Shown here one piece after another: positions 2,540 to 64,000 of a stretch of 64,000 nt of DNA (within the stretch, counting starts at the first letter, position 1; each line of letters opens with the position of its first letter). A program made the translations under genes and the position numbers. This DNA is from Myxococcaceae bacterium. Its GTDB lineage: Bacteria; Myxococcota; Myxococcia; Myxococcales; UBA5297. The notes beneath the pieces are model-generated. The model did not search any database and had not been told where the DNA came from. It saw only the letters and a program-made list of their open reading frames with translations. The stretch covers positions 17,193 to 81,192 of the forward strand of contig JAFVYB010000024.1 in the NCBI GenBank assembly GCA_017500825.1. The letters run 5' to 3'.

Positions 2540-4984
2540 TCACTGTTCGGCGACGAATGACTTGAGGACGTTGAGCGACTGGCCGTCAGTGACGAACGTG
2601 ATCGCGCCGTCGCGGTCGGTGCGGTGGATGGCGCTTCCCTGGGATTCGTAGCGGGCGACGACTTCGGCGTGCGGAAAACCAAAGCGGTTGTTGCGCCCAC
2701 AGGAAAAGACGACGTGGCCGGGCGAGATGGCGGCGACGAATTCCGGCGTCGAGCTCGTCCTGCTGCCGTGGTGCGGCGCCTTGAGCACGGTCGCGCGCAG
2801 ATCTCGGCCTGCGGAGAGCAACGCCTGTTCGCCCAGCGCCTCGATGTCGCCGGTGAAGAGAAACGAGATCTCTCCCAAGCTCAGGCGCGCGCTCAGGCTG
2901 GCGTCGTTTTCGCCAAGATGCGGGGCATTGGGAGGCGGGTGCAGGATCGCGACCTCGACGCCGCTCAGCGCTCGTCGGTCACCGGCCGCCAGCTCGACGA
3001 TTTGGGCCTTGGGCGCCGCGTCGACGAGGGCGCGAGAAAGTCCGCCGGGCACCTGGGTTTGTCCGCGGGCGATCCAGATTTCGCGCGGGCGCAGCGCTGC
3101 CGCCGACTCGATGAGCCCGTTCGCGTGATCCGGGTGCGGGTGAGAGAGCATGGCGATGTCGAGCCGTTCGACGCCCAACGCGCGCAACGCCGGGACAAGG
3201 ACGCGTTCGCCGACACGCCAGCGCCCCTCGGGATCACCGCCGCCATCGATCAGCATCGTCTGCCCGTCGGGGAAGCGAACCAGCGCCGCGTCGCCCTGGC
3301 CGATGTCGAAGAAGGTCACGCGCAGCGAGCGATCCATGTGGCGCGCCATCCACGGCAGGCCCGCGAAGACGACGAGACCCAAGGCGCCGATGCAGGCCGA
3401 CAACATCCCGGCGCGTCGCGAACGCGGCCAGAGCCAGAGCGCGAGGAGGCAGGCGTAGGCGGCGGCGACCACAGCGCCCGTGGGCGGCGACACGTCGAGG
3501 CTGGCCCAGGGCAGCGAAGCGAAAAGGCGCGTGATCGCGAGAAGCAGCGCGGCCAACGGATCGCAGAGGCACAGGAGGAGCGCGGCGATCGGTTCGCAAA
3601 GGCTCATCGCGAGCGCGGCGCAGGCGGAGAGGACGGTCAGGGCACTGCCCAGCGGCAGGGCGACGAGGTTGGCGAGCACGGCGACGATCGATGTCTGTCC
3701 AAAGGCCCGGGCCACGAGCGGCGCGGTGGCCAAAGAGGCGATCGCGGTCGCGGCCAGAGTCGCGCACAGCCAGCGGGCACAGCGCAAAAGGCGCGAACGT
3801 TCGTCCGACTCGTTGAGAGAGAGGCGGCGCGAGAGCCACTCGTTCAGAGGGCGGGTCCCCAGCATCAGCGAGGCCACCGCGACAAAGGAGAGCTGAAAGG
3901 AGATCGAGCGCAGCGCCGCGGGATCGCGCGCGAGAATGACGAGGGCGGCCAGGCAGAGCGCGCTCGGAGCGTCGTCGTCTCGTCCCAGGACGCGCGCCAA
4001 AAAGAGGGCGCTGACCATCACCCCGGAACGGACAGCCGGCACCTCGGCGCCGCTGAGAAAGACGTAGAGCCAACACATCGGCACCGTGAGCAGCGCGGCG
4101 AGGCGCGGGACATCGCAGCGCAGCGTGAGCGCGGAGAAGCGGGTGAGAAGCCAGCGCAACAGCCGGCAGAGGCCCAGCGCCACCACGCCCACGTGCAGGC
4201 CGGAAACGCTGAGCAGATGGGCGAGTCCGGTGTCGCGAAAGTCGGACAGCGTCTCTTCGGGCAGCGCGGCGCGATCTCCCAGGCCGAGGGTGCGGACGAG
4301 TCGCGCGGCGTTTCCTTCATCGATGGCGCGCGCGCACAACTCGGCGAATCGCTCGCGGTAGTCGCGCTGAAACCGGGCCGACGGCGGCGGAAACCCAATG
4401 GCGCTCCACTGACCGCGCACAGGCCTGGCCAAAAAAGCGATGCCCTGGGCCTGATCCTCGCCGCGTCGATCGCGCTGTCCCGGGTTGGTCGGGCCGCGCG
4501 GCTTTCGCAATCGCACCCGGGCCCGCACAGAGTCGCCGACATAGAGCGACGGCGCGCCGTCGAGGCTGAGCCAGACGCCAAAACGCGCGTCGAAAAACGC
4601 CTCTCCACGAATGACGCGATGGACCCGCAGATGGACCCGCGTCCGATTTTCGCGCGGCGGCGACACGGCAACGACGCGCCCTTCGACGACTTCTTCGGCG
4701 GCCAAATCCGCGGGCAACTCGATCGCCGCCTGACGCTGCGAAAGCCCAACGCCCCAAAGCGCCGAGGCCAGAGAGACGAGCGCAAACGACAAAATCGGCG
4801 CGCGGCGCGAACCGGCCAAAGCCATCGTCGACAGCAACAGCGCGACAACGAGCGCGACGCCCGGCGCCTGTGGCGACAGCGGACCGATCCAGACGCCAAG
4901 TCCAAAGAGCAGCGCCGCGAGCACAAGGGGACGGCCCGCCAGATCCCGCTCAAGCGACGATGACTTCGAAGCGCGCGCCCGCAT
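2540..4984 (-). CDS. comEC: DNA internalization competence protein ComEC/Rec2 (membrane channel + C-terminal MBL-fold domain)
   Basis: Long polytopic membrane region. C-terminal metallo-beta-lactamase signature LSHPHPDHANGL ... APHHGS typical of ComEC. Confidence 0.85.
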   Translation of the reverse strand: MRARASKSSSLERDLAGRPLVLAALLFGLGVWIGPLSPQAPGVALVVALLLSTMALAGSRRAPILSFALVSLASALWGVGLSQRQAAIELPADLAAEEVVEGRVVAVSPPRENRTRVHLRVHRVIRGEAFFDARFGVWLSLDGAPSLYVGDSVRARVRLRKPRGPTNPGQRDRRGEDQAQGIAFLARPVRGQWSAIGFPPPSARFQRDYRERFAELCARAIDEGNAARLVRTLGLGDRAALPEETLSDFRDTGLAHLLSVSGLHVGVVALGLCRLLRWLLTRFSALTLRCDVPRLAALLTVPMCWLYVFLSGAEVPAVRSGVMVSALFLARVLGRDDDAPSALCLAALVILARDPAALRSISFQLSFVAVASLMLGTRPLNEWLSRRLSLNESDERSRLLRCARWLCATLAATAIASLATAPLVARAFGQTSIVAVLANLVALPLGSALTVLSACAALAMSLCEPIAALLLCLCDPLAALLLAITRLFASLPWASLDVSPPTGAVVAAAYACLLALWLWPRSRRAGMLSACIGALGLVVFAGLPWMARHMDRSLRVTFFDIGQGDAALVRFPDGQTMLIDGGGDPEGRWRVGERVLVPALRALGVERLDIAMLSHPHPDHANGLIESAAALRPREIWIARGQTQVPGGLSRALVDAAPKAQIVELAAGDRRALSGVEVAILHPPPNAPHLGENDASLSARLSLGEISFLFTGDIEALGEQALLSAGRDLRATVLKAPHHGSRTSSTPEFVAAISPGHVVFSCGRNNRFGFPHAEVVARYESQGSAIHRTDRDGAITFVTDGQSLNVLKSFVAEQ

Positions 4985-5106: not shown

Positions 5107-8100
5107 TCAGCCGGCAAGCAGCGATTCGTCGGCAGTGCCCCGTTCGCTCGATTTTGACGCGCGTCGCGGTTTGGCCGAGGCCCCGAGATCCGCGTCGATG
5201 GCGGCGACGGTCGACTTGCCGTTCGACTCACCCAGCGTCTCCGCCAACCGCTCGTGCGCCACCGACATGAAGAGCTTGATGCGGTTGATCTGGTTCGATT
5301 CGCAGGCGCCCGGGTCGTAGTCGATGGCGGCGATGTTGGCGTTGGGGCGGACGCGCTTGATCTCCTTGATCACGCCCTTGCCGGTGATGTGGTTCGGCAG
5401 ACAGCCAAAGGGCTGGAGGCAGAGGACGTTGGGCGCGCCGTGGTCGATGAGCTCCAACATGTCGGCGGTCAGCAGCCAGCCTTCGCCCGCCTGAAGTCCG
5501 GTGGTGATGACCTGCGCCGCCTTGCGCTCCAGATCGTCGATGTGCGCCACCGGCATGTAGCGCGTGCCCTCCAGCGCCTCGCGCAGCGCGTCGCGAAGCC
5601 CTTCCAAAACGCCCACGCTGAGCCGGTTGCTCAACTGCGCCGCCACGCTGCCGCCGTGATGCCTGCCCTGATAGACGGCGTCGCTCAGGCAGTAGAGCAG
5701 GAAGTCGTTGAAGTCGGTGACCACTGCCTCGCCGCCCTCCTGCTCGATGACGCGCACCGCGTTGTTGTTCGCGTCCGGGTGATACTTGAGCAGGATCTCG
5801 CCGACGACGCCGACGCGCGGCCTGATTTTGCCGTCGCGCGGGATGGCCTCGAAGTCGCGCACCATCTGTCCGAGGTGCCGCCGAAAGACATCGATGCGCG
5901 TTCCGGGCGACTCGACGTTGCTGCGCGCGCGCCTGAGCCAGAGCGCGGTCAAAGCGTCGGTCTCGCCTTTGCGCACCTCGTAGGGCCGCGTGGCGTTGGA
6001 CAGGCGCATCAGCATGTCGCCGTAGAGGCCCGCGAGCAGAAGGCGTTCGGCGAAGCGCAGCGTGACCTCAAAGCCGGGCTGTTGGTCGCCGCGGCCGCTG
6101 TTGAGCGAGAGCACCGGCACCTGGGGATAGCCCGCCTCGACGAGGGCCTTGCGCAGGAGCGGGATGTAATTCGTCGCCCGGCACGGACCGCACGTCTGCG
6201 TGAGCAGCATCGCCGTCGTGTCCGGGTCGTAATCGCCGCGCGTGAGCGCCTGCAGCTGTTGACCGATGACGACGAGCGCCGGGTAGCAGGCGTCGTTGTG
6301 AACGTATTTGAGCCCCAGCTCGATCGCAGCCCGGTCCACCTTGGGCAGGATGTCGAAGCGGTAGCCCGAAGCGCGGAAGGCCCCCTCGTAGAGGTCGAAG
6401 TGCAGCGGCATCATCTGCGGGGCGAGGATGGTGTGGGTGCGCCTCATGCGAGTGACGAAGGGGACGCGGCCGCGCGTGTTCGCCAGATACGTCGCCGGCA
6501 TCGACTCGCCTGTCCCCGCGCGAGAGCCCGCTTCCCGGTCTTCGCCGTCCTCGACCTGAACGCCGCCGAGCTGTCCCCCGCGCACAGCCGCCATCAGCGA
6601 TCGGATGCGAATGCGCGCCGGCCCCAGGTTGCCGCCCTCGTCGATCTTGATCAGCGTGTGCAGCTTGCCCGCGCCATCGAGGATGCGATGCGCCTCGTCT
6701 GCCGTCACCGCGTCCACGCCGCAGCCAAACGAAGTCAGCTGGACGAAATCCACATTCGGCAGCCGACCGACCAACGCCGCCGTCCGATAGAGGCGCGCGT
6801 GGTAGGTCCACTGGTTGACGATATCGAGCTCGGGCATGTCTGCCTGCAGATGGGCGATCGAGTCCTCGCTGATCAGCGCCGCGCCCAGCGAGACGACGAG
6901 CTCGTCGAGGCCGTGATTGACGAGCGGATCGACGTGGTAGGGCCGCCCGGCGAAGACGATGCCGTGGCCGCGTTTTTCCCTCACCCAGGCCAACGCGCGC
7001 TCACCCTCGCGGCGCAGTTCGGCCCGATAGCGTTCCAGTTCGCGGCGCGCCTTCTCGATGGCCGAGAGGAGTTCACGCTCCGGGATCTGGAAGAGCGGCG
7101 AGAGGATCCTGGCGAGCGACTTGGCGTGCGCCGGATTCACGCAAGGCGAGAAGTAGCGAACGCCCTCCTCCGCGAGCGCCTCGGTGTTGAGGCGGATGAC
7201 CTCGGGGTAGCCGCTGACGACCGGGCAGTTGAAGCAGTCGCGCGCGCTCGGGTGCTCCTTCGTCTCGCGCGGCACGGTCGGATAAAAAATCGTCTTCACG
7301 CCGCGCCTGAGCAGGTCGGCGATGTGTCCGTGGGCCAGCTTGGCCGGGAAGCAGACGGTCTGTGAGGGCATCGACGACAGCCCCAAATCGTAGAGCGCCT
7401 TGCTCGACGGCGACGAGAGCGTCACGCGAAAGCCGAGCGCGTCAAAGAGCGTGAACCAGAAGGGGAAGCTCTCGAACTGATTGAGCACGCGCGGAATGCC
7501 GATCTCGCCGCGCGGCGCGCGTTCCAGAGGCCGAGGCTCGTAGTCGAACAGCCGCTTGTTCTTCCACGCGTAGAGGTTGGGGGGGCGGTTCGTCAGTTCG
7601 AGCTTTTTGCCCGCGCCCTTCTCGCAGCGGTTGCCGGAGATGAAGCGCCGCCCGTCCGAGAAGCGGTTGATCGTCAGCAGGCAGCGGTTGCCACACCCCT
7701 GACAGCGCTGGGTTTTGGAGGTGGCGCTCAGCGCGCGCAGCTCGTCGAGCGAAAGCAGGCGGCTGGCGGGCAGGTCGCTCCCTTTGGTGTTCGCGAGCCG
7801 GACCTCGTCGCGGGCGAGCAGCGCCGCGCCAAAAGCCCCCATCAGGCCGGAGATCTCCGGACGAATCAGCGGGCGCCCGAGCAGCCACTCCATGGCGCAC
7901 AGAAGCGCGTCGTTGGCGAAGGCGCCGCCCTGGACGATGACGCGGTTGCCGAGTTCCTCCGGGTCGCGGATGCGCAGCACTTTGTAGAGGGCGTTGCGCG
8001 CGACCGAGTAGCAGAGCCCCGCCGCGATATCGCCGATGGCCGCGCCTTCCTTCTGCGCCTGCTTGACCTTCGAATTCATGAAGACGGTGCAGCGCGAACC

Positions 8101-12027: not shown

Positions 12028-13050
12028 TCAGCGCCGCCAACGCCTGAGGCCCGACAACAACGCCAGCGCCATCCAGCCCACCATTCCCACAGGTCCCGCG
12101 TTGCCCGCGCCCGCGCATCCACCGGCTGGAACGATGTCCTCACCTTCATCCGTGACTTCTTCCGCGCTCCCGCCCTGACAGGCCAAACGACTGTCAGCGG
12201 TAATGAAGACCCCCTCAGCCCCATCGAGCAGGCAAGGCGCCGCGGTCACAGGAATGGCGAACGCCTCCGAGGTGAGGGTGTAGTCGCGCACGTATTTGCC
12301 AGCGGGCGTGTAGAGCTTGCCCTTGACCGTCAGCGTGGCCTCGACCTCGCCGACCTTTGTCGGGCTCAGCGTCGTCAGGTTGAAGCTGTTCGTGCCGCGA
12401 TAGTCCTGCGACTTGAAGTCGACGCCCGCGCCCTTGAACTTGATGAACTTGCGGACGTTATCGGCCTCGATGCTCCAACCCGGCTCCGGCGCCGAGTCAT
12501 AGATGGTCAGCGGCAGCGTCTGTCCGGCCACGAGCCCGCCGTAATGCAGTCCCTCGTCGAGCACGCGCGCCGCCTCGATGACCGGCGGAATTTCAATCGG
12601 CTCTGAGACGCTCTCGACGCGCTCGCCTTCCTCGGCGCAGGCCCCGTTCTTGTCGAGCGACGCGCAGCAGCTGCCCGTGACGCGGACGCGATAGACAGCG
12701 CCGGGTTTGAGCGCGGCCGTCAGTTGCCGGGTCTGGCTGCCCACTTCCTGAAAGCTGGCACTCCCATCGAGCCGAAGCCCCGTCGCCGGATGGGGATCGA
12801 GCACGCCCGCGGCCGGATCAAAGTCGTAATCCAGCGTCGATCCAACAGCGCCCCCCGGACAGTTGAGCGACAGCGCGACCGGCACCTCGACAAAGGCCAT
12901 GGGGCGCCCGTTCTCGGTGGTCATCTCAATGGTGCCGTTCCAGGGGCCCATCGCGGCGCTGGCGTTGATCGATGTCTCGGCGGCAAAAGCCTGAGGCGCG
13001 ACATTCAAGGACAGGGCAAACACGGCGGCAGTCAGCGAATAGCGGGACAT
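12028..13050 (-). CDS. secreted hypothetical protein with MYXO-CTERM-like C-terminal tail
   Basis: Signal peptide MSRYSLTAAVFALSLNVAPQAFA. C-terminus GGCAGAGNAGPVGMVGWMALALLSGLRRWRR. Confidence 0.5.
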   Translation of the reverse strand: MSRYSLTAAVFALSLNVAPQAFAAETSINASAAMGPWNGTIEMTTENGRPMAFVEVPVALSLNCPGGAVGSTLDYDFDPAAGVLDPHPATGLRLDGSASFQEVGSQTRQLTAALKPGAVYRVRVTGSCCASLDKNGACAEEGERVESVSEPIEIPPVIEAARVLDEGLHYGGLVAGQTLPLTIYDSAPEPGWSIEADNVRKFIKFKGAGVDFKSQDYRGTNSFNLTTLSPTKVGEVEATLTVKGKLYTPAGKYVRDYTLTSEAFAIPVTAAPCLLDGAEGVFITADSRLACQGGSAEEVTDEGEDIVPAGGCAGAGNAGPVGMVGWMALALLSGLRRWRR

Positions 13051-13330
13051 GGGGTCTCCTCGTCAAAAAGGCGAAGCGCGGACACATTCAAAAAAAGCGC
13101 GATCCAAAGGCGCCGCTTGATGTGGCCAGACGCGGTGAATCTCAACCTTTGATTGCGACACATTTCATTTCGCCGAATAATTTTTAACCCCCAACAATCA
13201 TTCAACCACCCATTCCCCCACCAACCGCTCCATCCAACAACCAACAAAACACCCCGGACCAACAACCAATAAAAAGCCAGACAAACCAACATTCCATCAA
13301 ACAGCTCGATTTAATTTTTAAACAAAATTA

Positions 13331-13367
13331 AAAATAAAAAAAGCGCCCGAGAATCAATCCGGGCGCC
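13331..13367 (-). terminator. Rho-independent terminator downstream of cdnL
   Basis: On the minus strand: GGGCGCCCGG-attgattct-CGGGCGC followed by TTTTTTTATTTTTAATTTT. Located 30 nt after the cdnL stop. Confidence 0.7.
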
Positions 13368-13395
13368 CTTTGGGAAGTCATTCCAGTCAATTATC

Positions 13396-13893
13396 TCAGC
13401 GACTGAAAATCTTTTTGAGATCCTCGTCGATCTCTTCCTCGGTGCAACCTTTGGCCAGGCTCAATTCCTTGATCAAAAGCCCGCGCACGGTGTCGAGCAT
13501 TTTGCGCTCGCCAAAAGAGAGGTCCTTGTCGCCTTTGAGGCGCGACAGGTCGCGAAGCACCGCCGCCAGCTTGAGAATGTCGCCACCTTTGATTTTTTCC
13601 ATATATTCGCGATATCGCCGATTCCAGGTGGTGGCGTCGACCGACATGCCCTTTTCCCGCAGGACGGCATAGACATCCTTGACTGTCTGCTCGTCGACAA
13701 TGCCGCGCAGGTTGGCCTTTTCAAGCTTGGTGAGCGGAATCATAATCCGCATGCCATTCTCAAGAATTTTGAGAATGTAAAAGGATTGCCGCTGGCCGGC
13801 GACTTCCTTGTGCTCAATCCCGGTGATTTCGCCAACACCTTGTCCGGGATAAACGACTTTGTCCCCAATCTTGAAACTCTTCAAGGCTTCCAC
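13396..13893 (-). CDS. cdnL: CarD/CdnL family transcriptional regulator (RNAP-binding)
   Basis: FKIGDKVVYPGQGVGEITGIE... is the CarD_CdnL_TRCF N-domain. GTG start at 13893 is preceded by AAGGAG at 7 nt; the ORF-track N-terminal extension has no ATG. Confidence 0.8.
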   Translation of the reverse strand: MEALKSFKIGDKVVYPGQGVGEITGIEHKEVAGQRQSFYILKILENGMRIMIPLTKLEKANLRGIVDEQTVKDVYAVLREKGMSVDATTWNRRYREYMEKIKGGDILKLAAVLRDLSRLKGDKDLSFGERKMLDTVRGLLIKELSLAKGCTEEEIDEDLKKIFSR

Positions 13894-14343
13894 GTCGTTT
13901 GTCTCCTTACTGGTTGAAGTTATTACTAAATTACCAATTCCCTGCAAAAAACGCGGTGCGCTTAGCACATTTTCGACTTTCGGTCAAACACCGAAAATCG
14001 CAAAAGGTTCAACCTTTTGTCTCTTTCGGCGAATGAAGCGGCCCCGCCAACACGATCACAGGGCAACGCATTCCCAAGGCGCCCCTCTGTCAGGACAAAA
14101 ACACGCGAAAGTGGCGCATTCGAGAGGCGACAGCGCGTTTCGAATGCAACCCAAACTAATTTTACACCCAGGCCGCCACGCCGCGTCGCCAAAGCCCAAA
14201 TCCGCTCTCACAAACTGTTTTCGAGTCAGCAATCGCGGACATTTCACGAAGGTTTCTGGCGGATTTGATTCTCAGGCGCGACTCATCCAACAACATTCAA
14301 CGCCATTTGCCCCCCCCCCCAACGCCCATCCAACACCGCACAA

Positions 14344-14361
14344 AAATTAAATCGAGCAAAT
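14344..14361 (+). repeat. AT-rich intergenic box AAATTAAATCGAGCAAAT (copy 1)
   Basis: Exact 18-mer shared with 63879-63896 (reverse strand). 14-16-mer cores recur at 13304-13319 (reverse) and 14418-14436 (variant). Confidence 0.7.
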
Positions 14362-14468
14362 CGAGAGGCGTTTGCCAAACAGTTCGGTCGGCGAAAAAAA
14401 ACATTCAACGCCGCATTAAAATTAAACCGAGCGAATCAATGTTCAACGCGCTGGCGACAAATCACAAC

Positions 14469-15056
14469 TCAGACGGAGAGCGCCTCGCAGGCTGGCAGGA
14501 GTTTGACGCGCGCGGCCTCCAGTCGGTTGACCTCGCGCAAAAAATGCAAACCGGCGCATTTGTCGGAAACGAGCGTTGGCAATGTGGCCATCGAAGCAAA
14601 CGTGCGGTTGGCCTGACTGAAAGCCTCATTGACAAAAACATCGCAAAACGCCGCCAGCGATTCAGCAAAACGCCTGTCATTAAGCGCTTCGCCCGCATTC
14701 ATCGCCAGATTTTCCAAAATCAAAAGATCGCCATCGCCCAAATCCTGAACGAGCTTACGCACGCCGTCGCCCACGCAGTCGTCGGCAAACCGCGCCTCGC
14801 AGCGCAACAATTCGACGAGTCTGGCGGCGGTCGGTTCAATGGTCCGCCCCTCTGACCATCGGCCCCGGGGGTTTCCCTGATGCGTGGCGAGAATAACGCG
14901 CGCGCGCTGATCCAAGGCGTAGCGAATCGTCGGCAATGCCTCCTCAAAGCGGCGATCGTCGGGGACGCCCCGCTTCTGACCGACGGGCAAATCGAGATCG
15001 AGGCGGATGAGAACGCGGCGGCCCGAGAGGGCGACGTTTTTCACTGAGCGGATCAC
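14469..15056 (-). pseudogene. pgk: phosphoglycerate kinase N-terminal domain only (truncated/degenerate pgk)
   Basis: First ~175 aa are collinear with the PGK N-domain (VILATHQGNP.G ... LILENL ... FCDVFVNEAFSQANRTFAS...). The AFGTAHRAHAS motif is degraded to AFSQANRTFAS. A stop falls at the inter-domain hinge. No C-terminal nucleotide-binding domain is present in any frame downstream. The gene lies directly downstream of an intact gap. Confidence 0.6.
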
Positions 15057-15218: not shown

Positions 15219-16232
15219 TCAGAAACCGGCGTCGGCCATCAGCTTGCCGAGGTCGACCATGCGGTTGGAGTAGCCATACTCGTTGTCATACCAGGCCATG
15301 ACCTTCACCAGCTTGCCGTCGATCACGTAGGTGTCGAGGGCGTCGAAGGTGCTGCTCGCCGGGCAGTTGTTGTAGTCGATGGAGACGGTCTTCTCCTCGC
15401 TGTAGTCGAGGATGCCCTTGAGCGCGCCTTCGGAGGCGGCCTTCATCGCGGCGTTGATCTCCTCCTTGGTCGCGGCCTTCTCCAGCTCGACGGTCAGGTC
15501 AACGAGCGAGACGTTGGGGGTCGGCACGCGAATGGCCAAGCCGTCCAGCTTGCCCTTGAGCACCGGCAGCACCTCGCCGACAGCCTTGGCGGCGCCCGTC
15601 GTCGTCGGGATCATCGACATGGCACCGGCGCGCGCGCGGCGCAGGTCGGAGTGGGGCAGGTCGAGGATGCGCTGGTCGTTGGTGTAGGAGTGAATCGTCG
15701 TCATCAGGCCCTTCACGATGCCGAAGTTGTCGAGCAGGACCTTGGCGATCGGGGCCAGGCAGTTCGTCGTGCAGGAGGCGTTGGAGACGATGTTGTCCTT
15801 GGCCTTGTCGTATTGGTCGCTGTTGACGCCCATGACGATCGTCTTGTCCGGATTCTTGGCCGGGGCGCTGATGATCACCTTCTTGGCGCCGCGCTCCATG
15901 TGGACCATGGCGTCGTCGCGGCCCTTAAAGATGCCGGTGCACTCAAAGACGATGTCCACGCCCATGTCGGCCCAGGGATAGGTCTTGGGGTCGCGCAGCT
16001 TGAGCAGCTTGATCGACTTGCCATTGATGACGATCGAGTCGTCGGTGTGGGTGACGCAGCCCTTGAAGGTGCCGTGGACGCTGTCGTGCTTGAACAGGTA
16101 GGCCATCGTCTTGGCGTCGCCCAGGTCGTTGATTGCCACGACATCGATTTCGTTCTCGATGCCGCGCTCGTAGATGGCGCGGAGAATGTTGCGGCCGATG
16201 CGACCAAAGCCATTGATAGCGAACTTAGCCAT
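15219..16232 (-). CDS. gap: type I glyceraldehyde-3-phosphate dehydrogenase
   Basis: [19 protein letters not shown]..., [12 protein letters not shown] active-site Cys, full-length 337 aa. Confidence 0.95.
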
Positions 16233-29970: not shown

Positions 29971-30957
29971 ATGTTCGACACCTCCCTCGCCGCGCTGCCG
30001 CTCTGGTTTTGGGCCGCCACCGCCTTCCTCATGGCCGCCTGCATCGGCAGCTTCCTCAACGTCGTCGTGGCCCGCGTGCCGCGCGAAGAGTCCATCGTCT
30101 GGCCGGGTTCGCACTGCTTCACCTGCGGCGCCCCCATCGCCGCGCGACACAACCTGCCGATCCTCTCCTGGTTCCTGCTGCGCGGGCGCTGTCACGACTG
30201 CAAGGCGCCCTTCTCCATCCGCTACGCCCTGGTCGAGCTGGCCTTTGCCTCCCTCTGCTGCCTGGCCATCGTCCGCCACGGAGGCCCGACGCTCGCCGCG
30301 TTCGAGGAATGCGCGCTTCTGGCCCTGCTCATCACGCTGGCCTGCATCGATCTCGACACCTGGCTCTTGCCGCACAGCGTGACCATCCCGGGCATCGCCA
30401 TCGGCCTCGCCTTTGCCCTGCCGCTCGGCTCGGACATCTTCCTCAACCGCCTTTTGGCCGCGGGCATCGGCTACGCGGTGCTCTTCGTCGGCGCGCTCAT
30501 CGGCGAACGGGTGCTCGGCAAGGAGGCGATGGGCGGCGGCGACTTTGTCCTCTTCGCCCTCATCGGCGCCTTCCTCGGAACGCGCGCGCTTTTGCCGGTC
30601 ATCTTCCTCGCCTCGCTTCAGGGGGCGGCCGTTGGCATCGCGCTGATTGCCCACAAACGCGCGGCAGGCCTTTCGACGGACGACGAAGACACCAACGACG
30701 GCGCGGACGGCGAATCGGCGGAAACCTCCACCAAAAACGAGACTGAAAACGCGGCGGAAACAGAGCAGGGCGCCGCGGCGATCGCGCTCACGCCTCAGGC
30801 AGAGCACAACCCGCTGAGCATCAGCGCCAAGATCCCCGACGACGGGTGGGAGCCCGATCCCCACGCCATCCCCTTCGGCCCCTTCCTCGCTCTGGGCGCG
30901 GCGGAGGTCCTCTACTTCTCCCGCCTGCCCGACATCCTCTTCCCCTGGATCCCCTAG
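29971..30957 (+). CDS. pilD: prepilin (type IV leader) peptidase/N-methyltransferase, A24 family, with C-terminal acidic insertion
   Basis: N-terminal Zn-binding tetracysteine domain (CFTCG...CHDC) and polytopic A24 core (GGGDFVLFALIGAFLG). Confidence 0.8.
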   Translation: MFDTSLAALPLWFWAATAFLMAACIGSFLNVVVARVPREESIVWPGSHCFTCGAPIAARHNLPILSWFLLRGRCHDCKAPFSIRYALVELAFASLCCLAIVRHGGPTLAAFEECALLALLITLACIDLDTWLLPHSVTIPGIAIGLAFALPLGSDIFLNRLLAAGIGYAVLFVGALIGERVLGKEAMGGGDFVLFALIGAFLGTRALLPVIFLASLQGAAVGIALIAHKRAAGLSTDDEDTNDGADGESAETSTKNETENAAETEQGAAAIALTPQAEHNPLSISAKIPDDGWEPDPHAIPFGPFLALGAAEVLYFSRLPDILFPWIP

Positions 30958-34235: not shown

Positions 34236-35612
34236 TCACGGCGCCGCAGGTGTTCCAGGCGTCTTGGCCGCAGCGTTCGCCGACTCTTCGCCTGCGCTCG
34301 CTGGCGACGCCGCCACCAGTCGCGCCTCCGCCAAAGAGATCGTCGCCGCCAGATGCCGTCCCGAAGGCCAGCTCGACCACTCGTCGGGCAGGATTCGATC
34401 GAGGAGCACGCGCCGATCCAAACGGATGATCAGCCGAACCTGCGGAGCGATGTCGGCACGCGCGCGATCGATCCAGATCTCGATGGCGCCGGACGTGTCC
34501 GCCGGAATGACCGCGCGCGAGGTGTAGCCATCCGACGAAAGCGCGCACCACGGACGCGGCGAAGCGAACGCGCAAGTTTCGACACCGCTGGCCGAGGGCG
34601 AAGTGGCTTCCCGGCGACGCGTGACACTGAGCGAGAGCCCGCGCGCCCCCTCTGGCTCCTCCTCGACGAGCTCGATCTCGTAGTCGGGCACACCGGCGCT
34701 GAAATCGATCTGGCGGCGGCTCGTCAGACCATCGACGCGGGAAGCGGTCACTCCCAGGCGGAACAGGCCCTCGGCGCGGATGGGCAGGCGAACCTGGAGA
34801 TCGTCGACGCGTTCCATGGCGCCCTTCACGGAGGCGACGTTCATTTGCTCGATTTCATTTTTAGACGGCCGTGCAGAAACGTTGTCGGACACGGCCTCCC
34901 GATCGTTTTTAGACGGCTGTGCAGGAATGTTTTCGGGCGAGGCCAACAGCTCGAAATCAATCCGCGCTCCCGGCTCGCTCTGCGCCGCGCAGATCACCGA
35001 GTCACCGACGCGCGGCAGGGGCATCAGGCCCTCGTTCTGGTAGGGCGCGACCGGATGTTCGACGCGGCAGCTCAGCTCAAGCGCGGGCGGGTTGAGGCAG
35101 CTCTGGGCGCGATTCTGGCGCACGGCAAAGCGCACCTCGCCCTGATGTCGCGGCACGGCGACGAGGGCGGCGGGATAGGTCGCCCCTGGCGGAAACGGGC
35201 AACCCGACGCGGGCAGGCGCTCCTCGACGGCGACGTGGAGCGTGTCCTTCTCCCTGGTGATCCGCTCAAAGGCGATGGCGTGCCCGATCGATGGCCGCTC
35301 TCCGGAAAAGGCGACGAGGATCATCTCGCGCGAAAAATCGATGGTCGGGACCGGGATCGAGGCGGGCCACAGCGAGAGCCACTCAGCGCGCGTGCGAATG
35401 ACATGAAAGCCGCGTTTGCGCGCGCCCGGATGATTGGAAAAAGCGCGAGAGGGCCGCACGGCGACGGCCGGCAGACTCAGACGGCGCGACGACGCATCGA
35501 CGACGCGAATCTGATTGGGCGCTGGACAGCCCGTGACGAGAAACGCGGCGAGGGCGAGCGACAGGGGGATCGCGCCCAGTCTGCGACGCCGAAAAAAAGG
35601 AGGGTGGGTCAT
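34236..35612 (-). CDS. hypothetical lipoprotein containing an internal 15-aa tandem repeat
   Basis: MTHPPFFRRRRLGAIPLSLALAAFLVTGC is a lipoprotein signal peptide. Internal AQPSKNDREAVSDNV / ARPSKNEIEQMNVAS repeat is encoded by a tandem 45-bp DNA repeat of lower GC. Confidence 0.5.
   Translation of the reverse strand: MTHPPFFRRRRLGAIPLSLALAAFLVTGCPAPNQIRVVDASSRRLSLPAVAVRPSRAFSNHPGARKRGFHVIRTRAEWLSLWPASIPVPTIDFSREMILVAFSGERPSIGHAIAFERITREKDTLHVAVEERLPASGCPFPPGATYPAALVAVPRHQGEVRFAVRQNRAQSCLNPPALELSCRVEHPVAPYQNEGLMPLPRVGDSVICAAQSEPGARIDFELLASPENIPAQPSKNDREAVSDNVSARPSKNEIEQMNVASVKGAMERVDDLQVRLPIRAEGLFRLGVTASRVDGLTSRRQIDFSAGVPDYEIELVEEEPEGARGLSLSVTRRREATSPSASGVETCAFASPRPWCALSSDGYTSRAVIPADTSGAIEIWIDRARADIAPQVRLIIRLDRRVLLDRILPDEWSSWPSGRHLAATISLAEARLVAASPASAGEESANAAAKTPGTPAAP
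34857..34945. repeat. tandem ~45-bp direct repeat (x2) inside the lipoprotein gene carrying the box GCCGTCTAAAAA(C)
   Basis: tttttagacggccgtgcagaaacgttgtcggacacggcc / tttttagacggctgtgcaggaatgttttcgggcgaggcc. Its reverse complement matches the 13-mer at 10566 exactly. Confidence 0.7.
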
Positions 35613-35947
35613 CGTTCGCGGACGGCGCGCCAAAAAAGAAAAGCCCGGCTCGCTGGAGTCGGGCTTTCCGAGTGGGGTGGTCGAACACACGAGAGGTTTC
35701 GCTACCGTTGCTTCCTTCCGGACCTGGCGGGGTTCACGGCCCCCCGTTGCCCGACCATAAACGCGATGAGAGGCGCCCAGTCGCCAAGGCGCCTCAAAAA
35801 CGGCGCGGCCCTCTAGCAGGGCGATCCCGGTGCGCCAAGGCTTTTTTGGCCCCCCAAATGGGCCTCTTGACAGGCCTGAAATCGACGTTCCCGCCCCCCG
35901 GAAAGCGGCTTGCGGCGCCTCCCCCCCAGCCCTAAAGCGCGCGCGCC

Positions 35948-43931: not shown

Positions 43932-44280
43932 AAACGCGAATACATTTATTTATATATTTGGGCGCGTGGCGTTTGTTTCATGCCGTGCGCCTTTGTTTTG
44001 TCCAAACGCAATAAACAAAAAAACTCCCGCAAAAAAACAAACGCGGCACCAAAATAAATCACTTTTTTGCGCGATATTTATCAAAAGATACAATTTTATA
44101 TTATTTTGGCGTTCTATCGCATGACATCGACCTTAAAACGCCGCGATCAATTCGCTAATTTTGCGCCAAAAACGCGAATTCGCCTGAAACACAAAACAAC
44201 AGCGGGCGTTCAATTAACAAAAACAAAAAACCACTGAAACGCTTTTATGCCGCACAAAAATCGTCAAACAATTAATTTTA

Positions 44281-44910
44281 TTAAAGGTGAAGAATTTCCG
44301 GACATCGACCTTGAAGCGGCTCGCCATCTGCCGCGGCGATAATTAATCCGCCTTTTTCGCTACTCCATAATCCAAAGAGCAAATCGAGCATTCGCCGCGC
44401 GGTTCCTGGGTCGAGGCCGGCGAGGGGATCGTCGGCGAGGAGGTAGCGCGGGCGGGCGACGATGGCGCGTGCCAGGCCGAGGCGTTTTTTCATGCCGCCC
44501 GAGAGTCGTTCGGGGAGTGTGCGCGCCTGTGCGTCTAGTCCCACAGAGGCGAGTGCCTGCATGGCGCGCTCTTTGGCTTCGGCGGCGGGGATGCCACGGC
44601 GGCGCAGGGGAAACATGACGTTGTCGAGGACATCCATCGAATCGAAGAGGGCATCGCTCTGGAAGATGAGTCCGAAGCGCAGGCGGACGCGGCGCAGGCT
44701 GTCGCGGTCGAGGCGTGCGAGATCTTCGCCGTCGACGAGCACGCGGCCAGAAGAGGGGCGCAAAAGGCCGACCATGGCGCGCATGAGCGTCGTCTTGCCG
44801 CTGCGAGAGGGGCCGACGATGGCCAGGTTGCCCTTGCCAAAGCGCCCCGAGAGGGGCCCGAGGACGCGGCGGCCTTCGAACGACACCTCCACCTCGTCGA
44901 GCTCGATCAC
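44281..44910 (-). CDS. ABC transporter ATP-binding protein (MlaF/Mkl-like), no permease adjacent
   Basis: Walker A GPSRSGKTT, signature LSGGMKKRLGLARA, Walker B LLADDP. GTG at 44910 (MIELDEVEVSF) with GGAG upstream. Confidence 0.65.
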   Translation of the reverse strand: MIELDEVEVSFEGRRVLGPLSGRFGKGNLAIVGPSRSGKTTLMRAMVGLLRPSSGRVLVDGEDLARLDRDSLRRVRLRFGLIFQSDALFDSMDVLDNVMFPLRRRGIPAAEAKERAMQALASVGLDAQARTLPERLSGGMKKRLGLARAIVARPRYLLADDPLAGLDPGTARRMLDLLFGLWSSEKGGLIIAAADGEPLQGRCPEILHL

Positions 44911-55716: not shown

Positions 55717-55871
55717 GGGTCGACTGACCGCCCACCGAGCCCACGCCTTTCGCCTTGTCGGAACACCTTTTCGGCCCATCGCTTCGGGGCGTTGTCGCCT
55801 CTGAGAGCGCTGCGCACCGTGCCTCCTCGCAGTCCGTCAACCCGTCACCGACGCCCGCGAAGGAGGCCGCC

Positions 55872-56726
55872 ATGTCGCTCGAAAGTTTTTTGGACGAAGA
55901 ATCCAGCCCGCTCACGCCAGAGGAATGGCGCCAGATGCACGCGCACGTGGTCGACGTGGCGCGGCGGCACCTGGTCGGACGGCGGATCGTCGACCTCTTC
56001 GGCCCGCTCGGCGCAGGCGTGGAGGCAATCGGCCTGACGCAGAGTGTCGAACGCCAGAGAGCCTCTCTCGATGACGAGGAGCAGATCGATGGCGCTCCAC
56101 TCTCGCGGCGCATGGCGCGTTCGCCCAAGTCGATCCCGGTCATCCACCGCGATTTCACGCTGCACTGGCGCGAGATCGCCGCCGCTCACGACAACGGCGT
56201 TCCCCTCGATTTTTCGCCCGCCGTCGAGGCCGCCCTCGCCTGCGCCCGCCGCGAAGACGAGCTCGTCTTTTACGGAGACGAATCGCGCGGCGTTCCCGGA
56301 CTCCTCACCGCCCCGGGCCGCGTTCAGGTGCCCCTCGGCGACTGGCGCGCGCCTTCAGAGGGGCTTTCCGCCGTGGTCCGCGCCGCCGAAGCGCTGCAAC
56401 ACGACAACCCCCTGCCCTACGCGCTCCTCCTCTCGCCGCGGCTCTTCTCGATGCTCCACCGCGTGTTTGGCGACGGCGGCACGCTGGAGATCGACGCCAT
56501 CAGGAGCTTCATCCAGGGAGGCGTCTTCGTCTCCAACCAGCTCGAACTGGAGACAGCGGCGCTCATCGCGCCCGGGCCGCACAACTTCGACCTCGCCGTG
56601 TCCATCGACCTGAGCGTGGCCTACCTCGGCGCCGAAGAGATGGAGCACCCCTTCCGCGTGCTGGAGGCGGTCCTGCCGCGCGTCAAGCGACCGCTGGCCA
56701 TCTGCACCCTCGAAAAAACGCTGTGA
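55872..56726 (+). CDS. family 1 encapsulin nanocompartment shell protein (HK97-fold, linocin M18-like)
   Basis: Collinear with T. maritima-type encapsulin: LTPEEWRQMHAHVVDVARRHLVGRRIVDLFGPLG..., FTLHWREIAAAHDNGVPLDFSPAVEAALACARREDELVFYG..., C-terminal FRVLEAVLP...LEKTL. ATG at 55872 with a perfect AAGGAGG RBS. Confidence 0.85.
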   Translation: MSLESFLDEESSPLTPEEWRQMHAHVVDVARRHLVGRRIVDLFGPLGAGVEAIGLTQSVERQRASLDDEEQIDGAPLSRRMARSPKSIPVIHRDFTLHWREIAAAHDNGVPLDFSPAVEAALACARREDELVFYGDESRGVPGLLTAPGRVQVPLGDWRAPSEGLSAVVRAAEALQHDNPLPYALLLSPRLFSMLHRVFGDGGTLEIDAIRSFIQGGVFVSNQLELETAALIAPGPHNFDLAVSIDLSVAYLGAEEMEHPFRVLEAVLPRVKRPLAICTLEKTL

Positions 56727-63067: not shown

Positions 63068-63736
63068 ATGACCATCTCCCCCTCACCCGCGCCGCCCTCC
63101 GCCCCGTCACGCGCCGCCCTCTACACACCGCGCGAAGAGCGGGCCAACGCCCTGACCCACGCCGCCGGCATCCTCCTCTCCCTCGCCTTCCTCAGCGCCC
63201 TCCTCGTCAAGGCCCAGGGAGCGGCCCAACTGTGGAGCGCCATCGCCTTTGGCGGCGGCCTGCTGCTGACCTTCACCGCCTCGACGCTCTACCACGCGGC
63301 GCGCGCGCCCTCGCTCAAACGCCGCCTGCGCATCCTCGACCACGCGTCAATCTACGTGCTCATCGCCGGCACCTACACACCCTACATGGTGCTGGCCCTG
63401 CCCAAACAAGGCGGCCTGCCCATGACAGCGGCCATCTGGACCGCGGCGCTCGTCGGCATCGCCATCGAATGCCTCTGGCTCAACCGCCCCAAATGGCTCA
63501 TCGCCGGTCTCTACGTCGTCCTCGGCTGGTGCATCATGATCAAAGGCGCGGCCATTTACGCGACAGTGGGCGCGGAAGGCTTTTGGCTCCTCATCGCCGG
63601 CGGAGCGAGCAGCACCCTTGGCGTCGCCTTTTATGTGCAAAAGAAAAAAGAATTTATGCACGCCCTGTTCCACATGTTTGTTTTCCTGGCGACAATACCG
63701 GCGTATTGCTCGATTTATTTTTACGTCTTCAAATAA
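63068..63736 (+). CDS. hemolysin III / PAQR family membrane protein
   Basis: 7-TM with conserved HAAG, SxxYH, HxxxH motifs (ALTHAAGILL, TLYHAAR, HALFHMFVF). Confidence 0.8.
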   Translation: MTISPSPAPPSAPSRAALYTPREERANALTHAAGILLSLAFLSALLVKAQGAAQLWSAIAFGGGLLLTFTASTLYHAARAPSLKRRLRILDHASIYVLIAGTYTPYMVLALPKQGGLPMTAAIWTAALVGIAIECLWLNRPKWLIAGLYVVLGWCIMIKGAAIYATVGAEGFWLLIAGGASSTLGVAFYVQKKKEFMHALFHMFVFLATIPAYCSIYFYVFK

Positions 63737-63878
63737 ATCTGGAACTCCAACGCACTCCTTTAAAAGACGCATTTCCACTATGGCGCCGCGCAAAACAATG
63801 CGCTTGACGCGCACGGAATTTCAAATCCGCTTTAGCGCGGGGCAATTTAATTTTATTTTGATATCAATTTGAACCTGA

Positions 63879-63896
63879 ATTTGCTCGATTTAATTT
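63879..63896 (-). repeat. AT-rich intergenic box AAATTAAATCGAGCAAAT (copy 2, reverse strand)
   Basis: Reverse complement of atttgctcgatttaattt; identical to the 14344-14361 copy. Confidence 0.7.
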
Positions 63897-64000
63897 ATTC
63901 AAAAAACGAGCATTCTCCCCCCAAACGGGATCCCCCAAATGATTGGCTGATTTTAATTTGGCCAACGTGTATTTTGACGGGGCGGAGGTGCTGGAGGGAG

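Follow-up and report, generated by a model that had tools for sequence, protein, structure and literature searches.

An AT-rich 18-bp box as the probable signature of a mosaic intergenic repeat family in uncultured gut Myxococcota

Repetitive extragenic palindromic (REP) sequences are GC-rich imperfect palindromes of 20 to 40 nt, and bacterial interspersed mosaic elements (BIMEs) alternate their orientation; some modules of BIMEs and of the pneumococcal BOX element bind architectural proteins. In the mosaic elements found between genes of Neisseria (NIMEs), a 20-bp repeat separates more than 100 families of 50- to 150-bp segments in variable arrays and has been hypothesized to be the target of a recombinase (PMC1797815). 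This repeat, dRS3, is an inverted repeat, ATTCCCNNNNNNNNGGGAAT, of the form ATTCCCN8GGGAAT (PMC1797815). Here we describe a short AT-rich sequence, the box, that recurs in a 64-kb stretch of contig JAFVYB010000024.1 from a Myxococcaceae bacterium (this whole stretch of 64,000 nt is referred to as the window) and in arrays on other contigs. The family to which it belongs is modular, is present in multiple copies, is restricted to one lineage, and has its breakpoints at the box. We are highly confident in the descriptive conclusion that the box is the signature of a new family of mosaic intergenic repeats.

Searching the window for AAATTAAATCGAGCAAAT with up to three mismatches returned six sites, compared to 0.01 expected by chance (none of 100 shuffled versions of the window contained a match). 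The box is exact at positions 14344 to 14361 on the plus strand and 63879 to 63896 on the minus strand; it has one mismatch at 34843 to 34860 (minus strand), two at 14419 to 14436 (plus strand), and three each at 13300 to 13317 and 63704 to 63721 (both minus strand). The exact 14-mer AAATTAAATCGAGC lies at 13304 to 13317, and a seventh, weak box (63942 to 63959, minus strand) has four mismatches to the 18-mer. An earlier note on this DNA had reported the exact pair and further copies near 13304 and 14419 and had considered chance recurrence negligible; the search confirmed both the coordinates and that judgment. The same note placed all copies in AT-rich intergenic islands. That holds for most of them, but two copies that it had missed lie within genes: the 34843 copy in a lipoprotein open reading frame (ORF) and the 63704 copy in the last codons of a hemolysin-III gene. 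GC content at the box islands is 0.45 to 0.55, compared to ~0.66 to 0.70 elsewhere in the window, and four or five of the six or seven boxes in the 64 kb fall within ~2 kb of repeat-family intergenic DNA. The core AAATCGAGC is additionally present at 5146, 44381, and 58177, in ordinary coding sequence without AT-rich flanks, and these occurrences were treated as chance.

With the right relatives as reference, the copies are similar beyond the 18-mer. Scans with the exact 18-mer of a collection of 185,579 species genomes (27 loci), of the JGI metagenomes, and of IMG/VR (the viral scan allowing Y at positions 9 and 18) gave almost exclusively single chance matches in AT-rich DNA, and only two short contigs, L013 and L032, were related. 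Each has four boxes, and both match window positions 63799 to 63899. They are labeled Eubacteriales (L013) and Candidatus Spyradenecus, Lentisphaerota (L032), which probably reflects wrong binning of AT-rich repeat contigs. A literature search for the box sequence returned unrelated primers only. Because gene callers sometimes call spurious ORFs over such repeats, we searched the protein database with a spurious ORF reading KLNKLNRAN across the box and then with an ORF across another module. These searches yielded 27 distinct “proteins” covering the module that we call M1 and 7 covering M2, all on small contigs, and of the contigs obtained in this way, L131 to L135 and L140 show the full array structure. 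The arrays on L013, L032, L131 to L135, and L140 are noncoding and AT rich, span 0.5 to more than 1.1 kb, and have three to five boxes each; the contigs are short and come from several samples, and some of the “different loci” may be alleles. Boxes within arrays are mostly direct repeats, 75 to 350 nt apart, and the boxes point outwards in some arrays that are in part palindromic. The same modules, 60 to 350 nt long, recur in different combinations across arrays. The small dispersed repeat suggested in the earlier note is thus real but larger than thought, with the box as the core of long modular arrays at many loci. On L140 (10.5 kb; core genes 65% GC), two arrays 6.5 kb apart have 366 nt in common at 87% identity, indicating that the family is multicopy within one genome. 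Nine contigs from other samples that carry the hemolysin-III gene all end 9 to 255 nt after its stop codon, which is the behavior of a multicopy repeat; the window's own 81-kb contig ends ~170 nt past the window.

Module M1 comprises the box and ~170 nt with two strong GC-rich hairpins. Module M2 comprises the box, tcaggttcaaat, an A-rich stretch, and three units of 26 nt that each contain a GCGC..AAGCGC hairpin. In units B1 and B2, the box is followed by ACCGNTCRTCTGAGG. Module E1 (also M0) is a ~28-bp stem whose loop holds a variant of the box (AAATTAAA...TTTGATGGAAT), and the arrays also contain a C-rich module with a weak box at its end and a stretch of short subrepeats. The box forms the 5′ edge of modules, and homology breakpoints coincide with it: at least three unrelated sequences occur in front of M2, and similarity begins exactly at the box. 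In 26 nonredundant copies (consensus, aAAATTAAAYCGAGCAAAT), information is near maximal over positions 1 to 18 and drops abruptly on both sides, as for a discrete unit of 18 to 20 bp, a profile that is only indicative since the copies were picked by similarity.

The modules are also structured. Compared to shuffled sequences, M1 folds strongly on the box strand (z = −4.5) and slightly less so on the opposite strand (z = −3.6), and its hairpins are kept by paired changes in diverged copies (CCCCACC/GGTGGG to CCCCATC/GATGGG); the eight M1 copies in the covariation analysis are too similar to distinguish selection on RNA structure from selection on DNA structure or to indicate the strand. These properties, and the fact that every module begins immediately at the box, would be expected if the box were a compact promoter or start signal, used by an alternative sigma factor or an unusual polymerase, for small structured RNAs corresponding to the modules, and two boxes do lie 250 to 460 nt upstream of codirectional genes. 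We nevertheless consider such a signal unlikely. The boxes have no sigma-70-like −35/−10 pair, and no promoter-like site overlaps any box at window positions 12900 to 14600 and 63500 to 64000 or at positions 1480 to 2640 of L140. No −35 element upstream of the boxes is shared in the alignment of copies, and candidate hexamers inside the box lack, by inspection, a conserved A at −11 or T at −7. Ordinary-looking sigma-70-type promoters, in contrast, can be seen by inspection upstream of the signal recognition particle (SRP) RNA and CarD genes here. Moreover, the modules are not followed by a terminator on the box strand, most of these RNAs would extend in antisense into neighboring genes, and no Rfam family was matched: Rfam 15 identified only the SRP RNA in the window and nothing credible in window positions 12900 to 14600, L013, L032, or L131 to L133 at E values of ≤1 to 5. 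The promoter element proposed in the earlier note likewise finds no support in the position of the boxes, mostly at gene 3′ ends and often aimed into the convergent gene, or in their inconsistent orientation to neighboring genes.

On the strand opposite the box, M2 reads as short GC hairpins with T-rich tails behind them; the box itself is the last of these tails. A terminator scan identified terminator-like hairpins with T-rich tails on this strand, one of them downstream of the hemolysin-III gene at 63798 to 63814, and M2 may act as a terminator for the adjacent convergent gene. A description of the box as the 3′ half of a small terminator was rejected, being true only of B2 units (CGAGC-N7-GCTCG).

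Using sensitive BLAST searches of the arrays against the window, we obtained matches at the box sites alone, and each window copy could be assigned to a module type beyond the 18-mer. The window's main piece of array is at its right-hand end, on the minus strand. The box-like 15/18 match at 63704 to 63721, in the hemolysin-III last codons (YCSIYF), resembles the B1 unit (..CTGAGCAAATACCGGT..). An M2 module with the exact box occupies 63747 to 63896 and shows tcaggttcaaat, the A-rich stretch, and short GCGC..AAGCGC hairpins after the box; this module is 81 to 89% identical over ~100 nt to M2 of L032, L131 to L135, and L140, and the M2-type BLAST match spans 63747 to 63902. Further array sequence (63897 to 64000), with the weak box AAATTAAAATCAGCCAAT (63942 to 63959) and the C-rich module, continues past the window end, and positions 63933 to 64000 align to the end of L133 with 90% identity over 69 nt. 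Around CarD, a solo box of the M0/E1 type (13271 to 13330, minus strand) consists of AAATTAAATCGAGCTGTT (13300 to 13317) plus TTGATGGAAT, and its 13271 to 13317 portion aligns to the E1 module of L135 over 48 nt at 77% identity. The B2-type box (14302 to 14361, plus strand) is the exact 18-mer with ~40 nt of family similarity upstream, and positions 14302 to 14360 match the B1-B2 junction of L013 and L133 at 71 to 74% identity over ~62 nt. The 14419 box, which the BLAST comparison assigned to the M2 type (14400 to 14449, plus strand), is AAATTAAACCGAGCGAAT (14419 to 14436) followed by caatgttcaac. Finally, the 17/18 copy at 34843 to 34860 (minus strand), in frame in a PrcB_C lipoprotein ORF (codons KNEIEQ), shares 88% identity over 26 nt with the terminal box of L136. 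The window therefore comprises the proximal end of one array (63.70 to 64.00 kb, running off the window), single-module relics flanking CarD, and one copy in a protein linker, and the copies around CarD are short degenerate relics of three module types.

To assess conservation, we compared six strain-level loci in two lineages, that of the window and that of L003/L006. The block with box 13300, after CarD, is 86% identical between the lineages, and the block with box 14419, next to the phosphoglycerate kinase (PGK) ORF, is 87% identical. Coding and promoter blocks near the boxes are equally similar, whereas the adjoining spacers are ~40% identical and thus unalignable. The L003/L006 lineage has a canonical 18/18 box at the site equivalent to 14419 and lacks the 14344 unit, such that its PGK-CarD spacer has one unit and that of the window lineage has two; the 14344 and 14419 copies form a local tandem duplication in which 14344 is the extra unit. 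After hemolysin-III, the L136 lineage has different modules, plus a variant box further out. The box is absent from the surroundings of CarD (4 to 20 kb) in L117/L118 (CarD 92% identical, gene order kept), where only a 14/18 relic is present after PGK, and in L111 to L116 (CarD 81 to 82% identical; 3 to 20 kb examined), where the local gene order is not kept. Conservation in the sister lineage, near absence from these relatives, and variation in unit number suggest that the family is young and lineage restricted and that its arrays are dynamic. L117 has short AT-rich repeats of its own in the same spacers (TGAATTC/ATTCATTT and GGATCGGYATTC; L117 positions 2560 to 2620 and 3470 to 3540), and each lineage seems to evolve its own vocabulary of intergenic repeats.

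The conservation in relatives to which the earlier note had looked is thus present in the sister lineage, and its alternative of a relic duplication without conservation does not hold, since two copies are conserved at syntenic sites. More generally, it is barely credible that the copies are chance matches or the functionless remnant of a single old local duplication. Within AT-rich islands, AT-rich strings do recur with greater ease, and the 14344 and 14419 copies are truly a local tandem duplication, but the excess of observed over expected sites, the presence of the box in at least 26 nonredundant contexts in other contigs, and its conservation at syntenic sites between lineages all argue against such an origin.

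The two copies inside genes show a distinct codon usage. The lipoprotein box lies in the region of its ORF with the lowest GC content at third codon positions (GC3), within a duplicated PSKN(D/E) linker. The hemolysin-III last codons with the 15/18 box use AT-rich codons (GC3 of 0.58, compared to 0.82 for the whole gene), and in the L136 lineage the same codons carry the variant GCTCAGTTT, the family's CTGAGC variant. We rejected replacement of the hemolysin-III C terminus by an element because the C terminus is native and is kept in all strain variants. Since both copies are in frame, insertion is a poor fit, and selection for the DNA motif or gene conversion from arrays fits better. The lipoprotein ORF also contains a 22-nt direct repeat, TTYCTGCACRGCCGTCTAAAAA, present twice at 34865 to 34940 (minus strand; 48 nt start to start) and encoding PSKN[DE]; its second copy runs straight into the 34843 box. 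The GCCGTCT within TTYCTGCACRGCCGTCTAAAAA is also how the neisserial uptake sequence starts, probably by coincidence. An SRP RNA of the bacterial small type (Rfam RF00169, 58 bits) lies at 35672 to 35760 (minus strand), ~800 nt upstream of this in-gene box.

Codons that are AT rich to a degree unusual for these genes could also result if the box were a DNA uptake signal, like the Haemophilus uptake signal sequence (USS) or the Neisseria DNA uptake sequence (DUS), that had accumulated by biased uptake and recombination. The box has a core flanked by AT tracts and occurs in both orientations, near terminators, and inside genes. The window further encodes ComEC (2540 to 4984, minus strand; Competence, DUF4131, and metallo-beta-lactamase domains) and a prepilin peptidase (A24; 29971 to 30957, plus strand). 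However, ComEC and PilD are widespread in noncompetent bacteria. USS and DUS sequences reach densities on the order of one per kb, over coding and noncoding DNA, whereas the box occurs about once per 10 kb, roughly 10-fold below that density, and most of its copies are in long repeat arrays rather than scattered singly. An uptake signal is therefore very improbable.

We then considered the genes next to which boxes are found. On the minus strand, the order is glyceraldehyde-3-phosphate dehydrogenase (GAPDH; 15219 to 16232), a short PGK-like ORF (14469 to 15056), a 575-nt spacer, CarD/CdnL (13396 to 13893), and a 340-amino-acid (aa) protein (12028 to 13050) with no Pfam match and an N terminus that resembles a signal peptide. 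The nearest named relatives of CarD are Myxococcus proteins. The PGK-like ORF (195 aa) covers positions 1 to 176 of the 379-position Pfam PGK model, i.e., the N-terminal domain only, and this short form is called in all three lineages, L117 included. Boxes 14344 and 14419 lie just past the PGK stop codon (33 nt in the case of 14419) and are oriented towards PGK. Box 13300 directly follows the CarD terminator hairpin and T run, ~250 nt upstream of the 340-aa gene, and boxes 63704, 63879, and 63942 are at or beyond the 3′ end of hemolysin-III and are oriented into it. Arrays adjoin gene 3′ ends in most cases. Where the neighbor is PGK, hemolysin-III, LarC, an AMP-dependent ligase, or a ddrB-ParB-like gene, the box is aimed at the gene, and where it is CarD or either of two different HsdS genes, the box is aimed away; for the HsdS gene on L131 and L132, the stop codon is inside the box.

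Several other features of this setting were noted. A run of 11 C residues (G on the gene strand) at 14310 to 14320, between box 14344 and the CarD upstream region, is 5, 8, or 11 nt long among otherwise near-identical strains, reflecting homopolymer slippage or assembly noise. GC content between 13200 and 19200 is 0.49 to 0.59, compared to ~0.66 to 0.70 in the rest of the window, and GAPDH, inside this region, has a GC3 of 0.93. The CarD stretch is ~49% GC here, whereas CarD of L117 is, by inspection, clearly richer in GC despite 92% protein identity. A 450-nt island of ~40% GC (43932 to 44380), between a tetratricopeptide repeat protein gene and a convergent ABC ATPase gene, contains many A tracts, lies where cumulative GC skew in the window is lowest, and shows no resemblance to the box family. 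The window also has an encapsulin-like gene (55755 to 56726, plus strand; Linocin_M18 match, annotation of contig L102) and encodes two FHA-domain proteins and a sigma-54 activator, which are common in Myxococcota.

Arrays also adjoin imported low-GC genes (HsdS, Fic, and ddrB-ParB). On L032, inverted repeats of ~260 nt (2 to 262 and 2533 to 2919; 83 to 85% complementary), each with an M2 box, enclose 2.3 kb of DNA with genes for a ddrB-like ParB-domain protein and an AllG-like protein. We dropped the idea that L013 and L032 differ by inversion of this two-gene segment, as the contigs are reverse complements of one arrangement. Three or four iteron-like repeats (..TTGAATTGATATT..) are found beside arrays on L013 (1425 to 1570), L032 (3480 to 3600), and L140 (1733 to 1782). 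On L013, a 76-aa ORF whose MarR-like match is weak and a Fic-helix-turn-helix gene come before them. Since such repeats also occur inside the chromosomal L140 array, they could represent a further module and not a plasmid origin. A perfect 23-nt tandem duplication (GCGCTTTCGTGACACAGTCTGAC, two copies) lies at 66 to 111 of L013, just upstream of the Fic gene.

Proximity to imported genes would also be consistent with an operator function, in which a repressor or regulator with sequence specificity, perhaps the product of a mobile element, binds the box and the arrays are clusters of sites. Models for such a system exist. Phage P1 C1 has the operator consensus ATTGCTCTAATAAATTT and 22 dispersed operators (PMC8546580), and repressors of temperate mycobacteriophages bind multiple asymmetric operators (PMC1934351), the “stoperators.” The box is likewise discrete, asymmetric, 18 to 20 bp long, and conserved against unrelated flanks, and its reverse complement, ATTTGCTCGATTTAATTT, matches the 17-bp P1 C1 consensus at 13 of 17 positions without gaps. 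This match, however, joins two AT-rich strings and was found after many known motifs had been tried. In addition, a tblastn search of the window and 14 related loci with P1 C1 as the query returned nothing better than an E value of 1, boxes are not at promoters, and many lie between convergent genes or at 3′ ends, where there is nothing to control. An operator function thus appears improbable, and the known P1 C1 system was rejected: the resemblance is real, but no C1 homolog was found in the loci searched. The regulatory site proposed in the earlier note survives in part, in that the box could be a protein binding site, but nothing points to a global transcriptional regulator. By-eye comparisons with sigma-70 and sigma-54 promoters, the IHF consensus, the DnaA box, dif, the CtrA box, rrn boxA, and an H-NS nucleation site each failed at conserved positions.

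The reading that we favor, and hold to be somewhat better than an even bet, is that the box is the conserved core of lineage-specific AT-rich noncoding mosaic arrays in an uncultured, ~66% GC gut bacterium and probably serves as a site of protein recognition or as a junction. The mechanistic part, a protein recognition or recombination junction site, is more tentative and, when taken alone, somewhat below an even bet; we propose it because of the breakpoints at the box, the varying unit numbers, and the conservation of the box against unrelated flanks. The box would be recognized, or used for crossover, by a sequence-specific DNA-binding protein whose gene lies elsewhere in the genome; this could be an architectural protein or an enzyme resembling recombinases or transposases. 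Recombination at the box would let arrays lengthen, shorten, and exchange modules, and M2, read on the opposite strand, might double as a hairpin-plus-T-tail terminator of the adjacent convergent gene.

Several observations weigh against this proposal. In three M1 copies, the box is degenerate (AAATAAACCYGGGCAAAT) and the module is intact, which suggests that selection there may act on the module and not on the box. Asymmetry sets the box apart from most recombinase core sites, REP sequences, and dRS3, and the two in-gene copies are in frame. No recombinase, transposase, or cognate binding protein was found beside any array examined, and we found no clean pair of empty and filled sites, target duplication, or terminal inverted repeat that would indicate mobility. 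A stronger version, in which the box is the crossover site of a dedicated site-specific recombination system that moves noncoding modules and whole gene cassettes into and out of chromosomal arrays, seems unlikely to us. Arrays do abut a type I restriction specificity gene, a Fic gene, and the ddrB-ParB/AllG gene pair. Such a cassette exchange system, if real, would have an asymmetric AT-rich core, unlike those of integrons or NIMEs; no integrase was seen in the loci examined, in which no attC model search was made.

If our reading of the box as the core of mosaic arrays is correct, these sequences constitute a new interspersed mosaic repeat family in uncultured gut Myxococcota, where none has been described. 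The arrays break every metagenome assembly at the same places, and AT-rich array contigs appear to be misbinned, so recognizing the box would aid scaffolding and binning of these genomes. The arrays also mark hypervariable spacers beside conserved genes and imported defense-type genes, which makes them candidate recombination hot spots and candidate host-adopted terminators.

Among known systems, P1 C1 operators are likewise asymmetric AT-rich sites of 17 to 18 bp with many dispersed copies, but the boxes are chromosomal, sit inside repeat modules, and do not overlie promoters. Miniature inverted-repeat transposable elements (MITEs) and Correia elements are, like the present units, small, noncoding, multicopy, and intergenic, and they can carry terminators and affect neighboring genes; the box units differ in being chained rather than single and appear to lack bounding terminal inverted repeats or target site duplications. 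A repeat search on L013 and L032 revealed long internal palindromes and the 260-bp inverted repeats around the two-gene segment, with no pair of terminal inverted repeats or target site duplications bounding box units. With BIME/REP sequences and pneumococcal BOX elements, the family shares a modular mosaic structure, a frequent location at 3′ ends or between convergent genes, and hairpins that can be terminators or transcript stabilizers. The box, however, is a nonpalindromic AT-rich 18-mer, found mostly in direct orientation, in arrays longer (up to more than 1.1 kb) than those of BIME/REP sequences. The likeness to NIMEs extends to long noncoding intergenic arrays, a short repeat of ~20 bp separating many families of variable segments of 50 to 300 bp, array lengths and unit numbers that vary between strains, and a base composition off the genome average. 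In contrast with NIMEs, the box is AT rich, is not palindromic, has no similarity to dRS3, and is linked to no phage or recombinase; its host is a myxobacterium-like gut organism, and its modules include long GC-rich hairpins. As the palindromic features of dRS3 and REP sequences are lacking, these sequence comparisons indicate that the family is an analog, and not a member, of NIMEs and BIMEs, with NIMEs as its closest counterpart.

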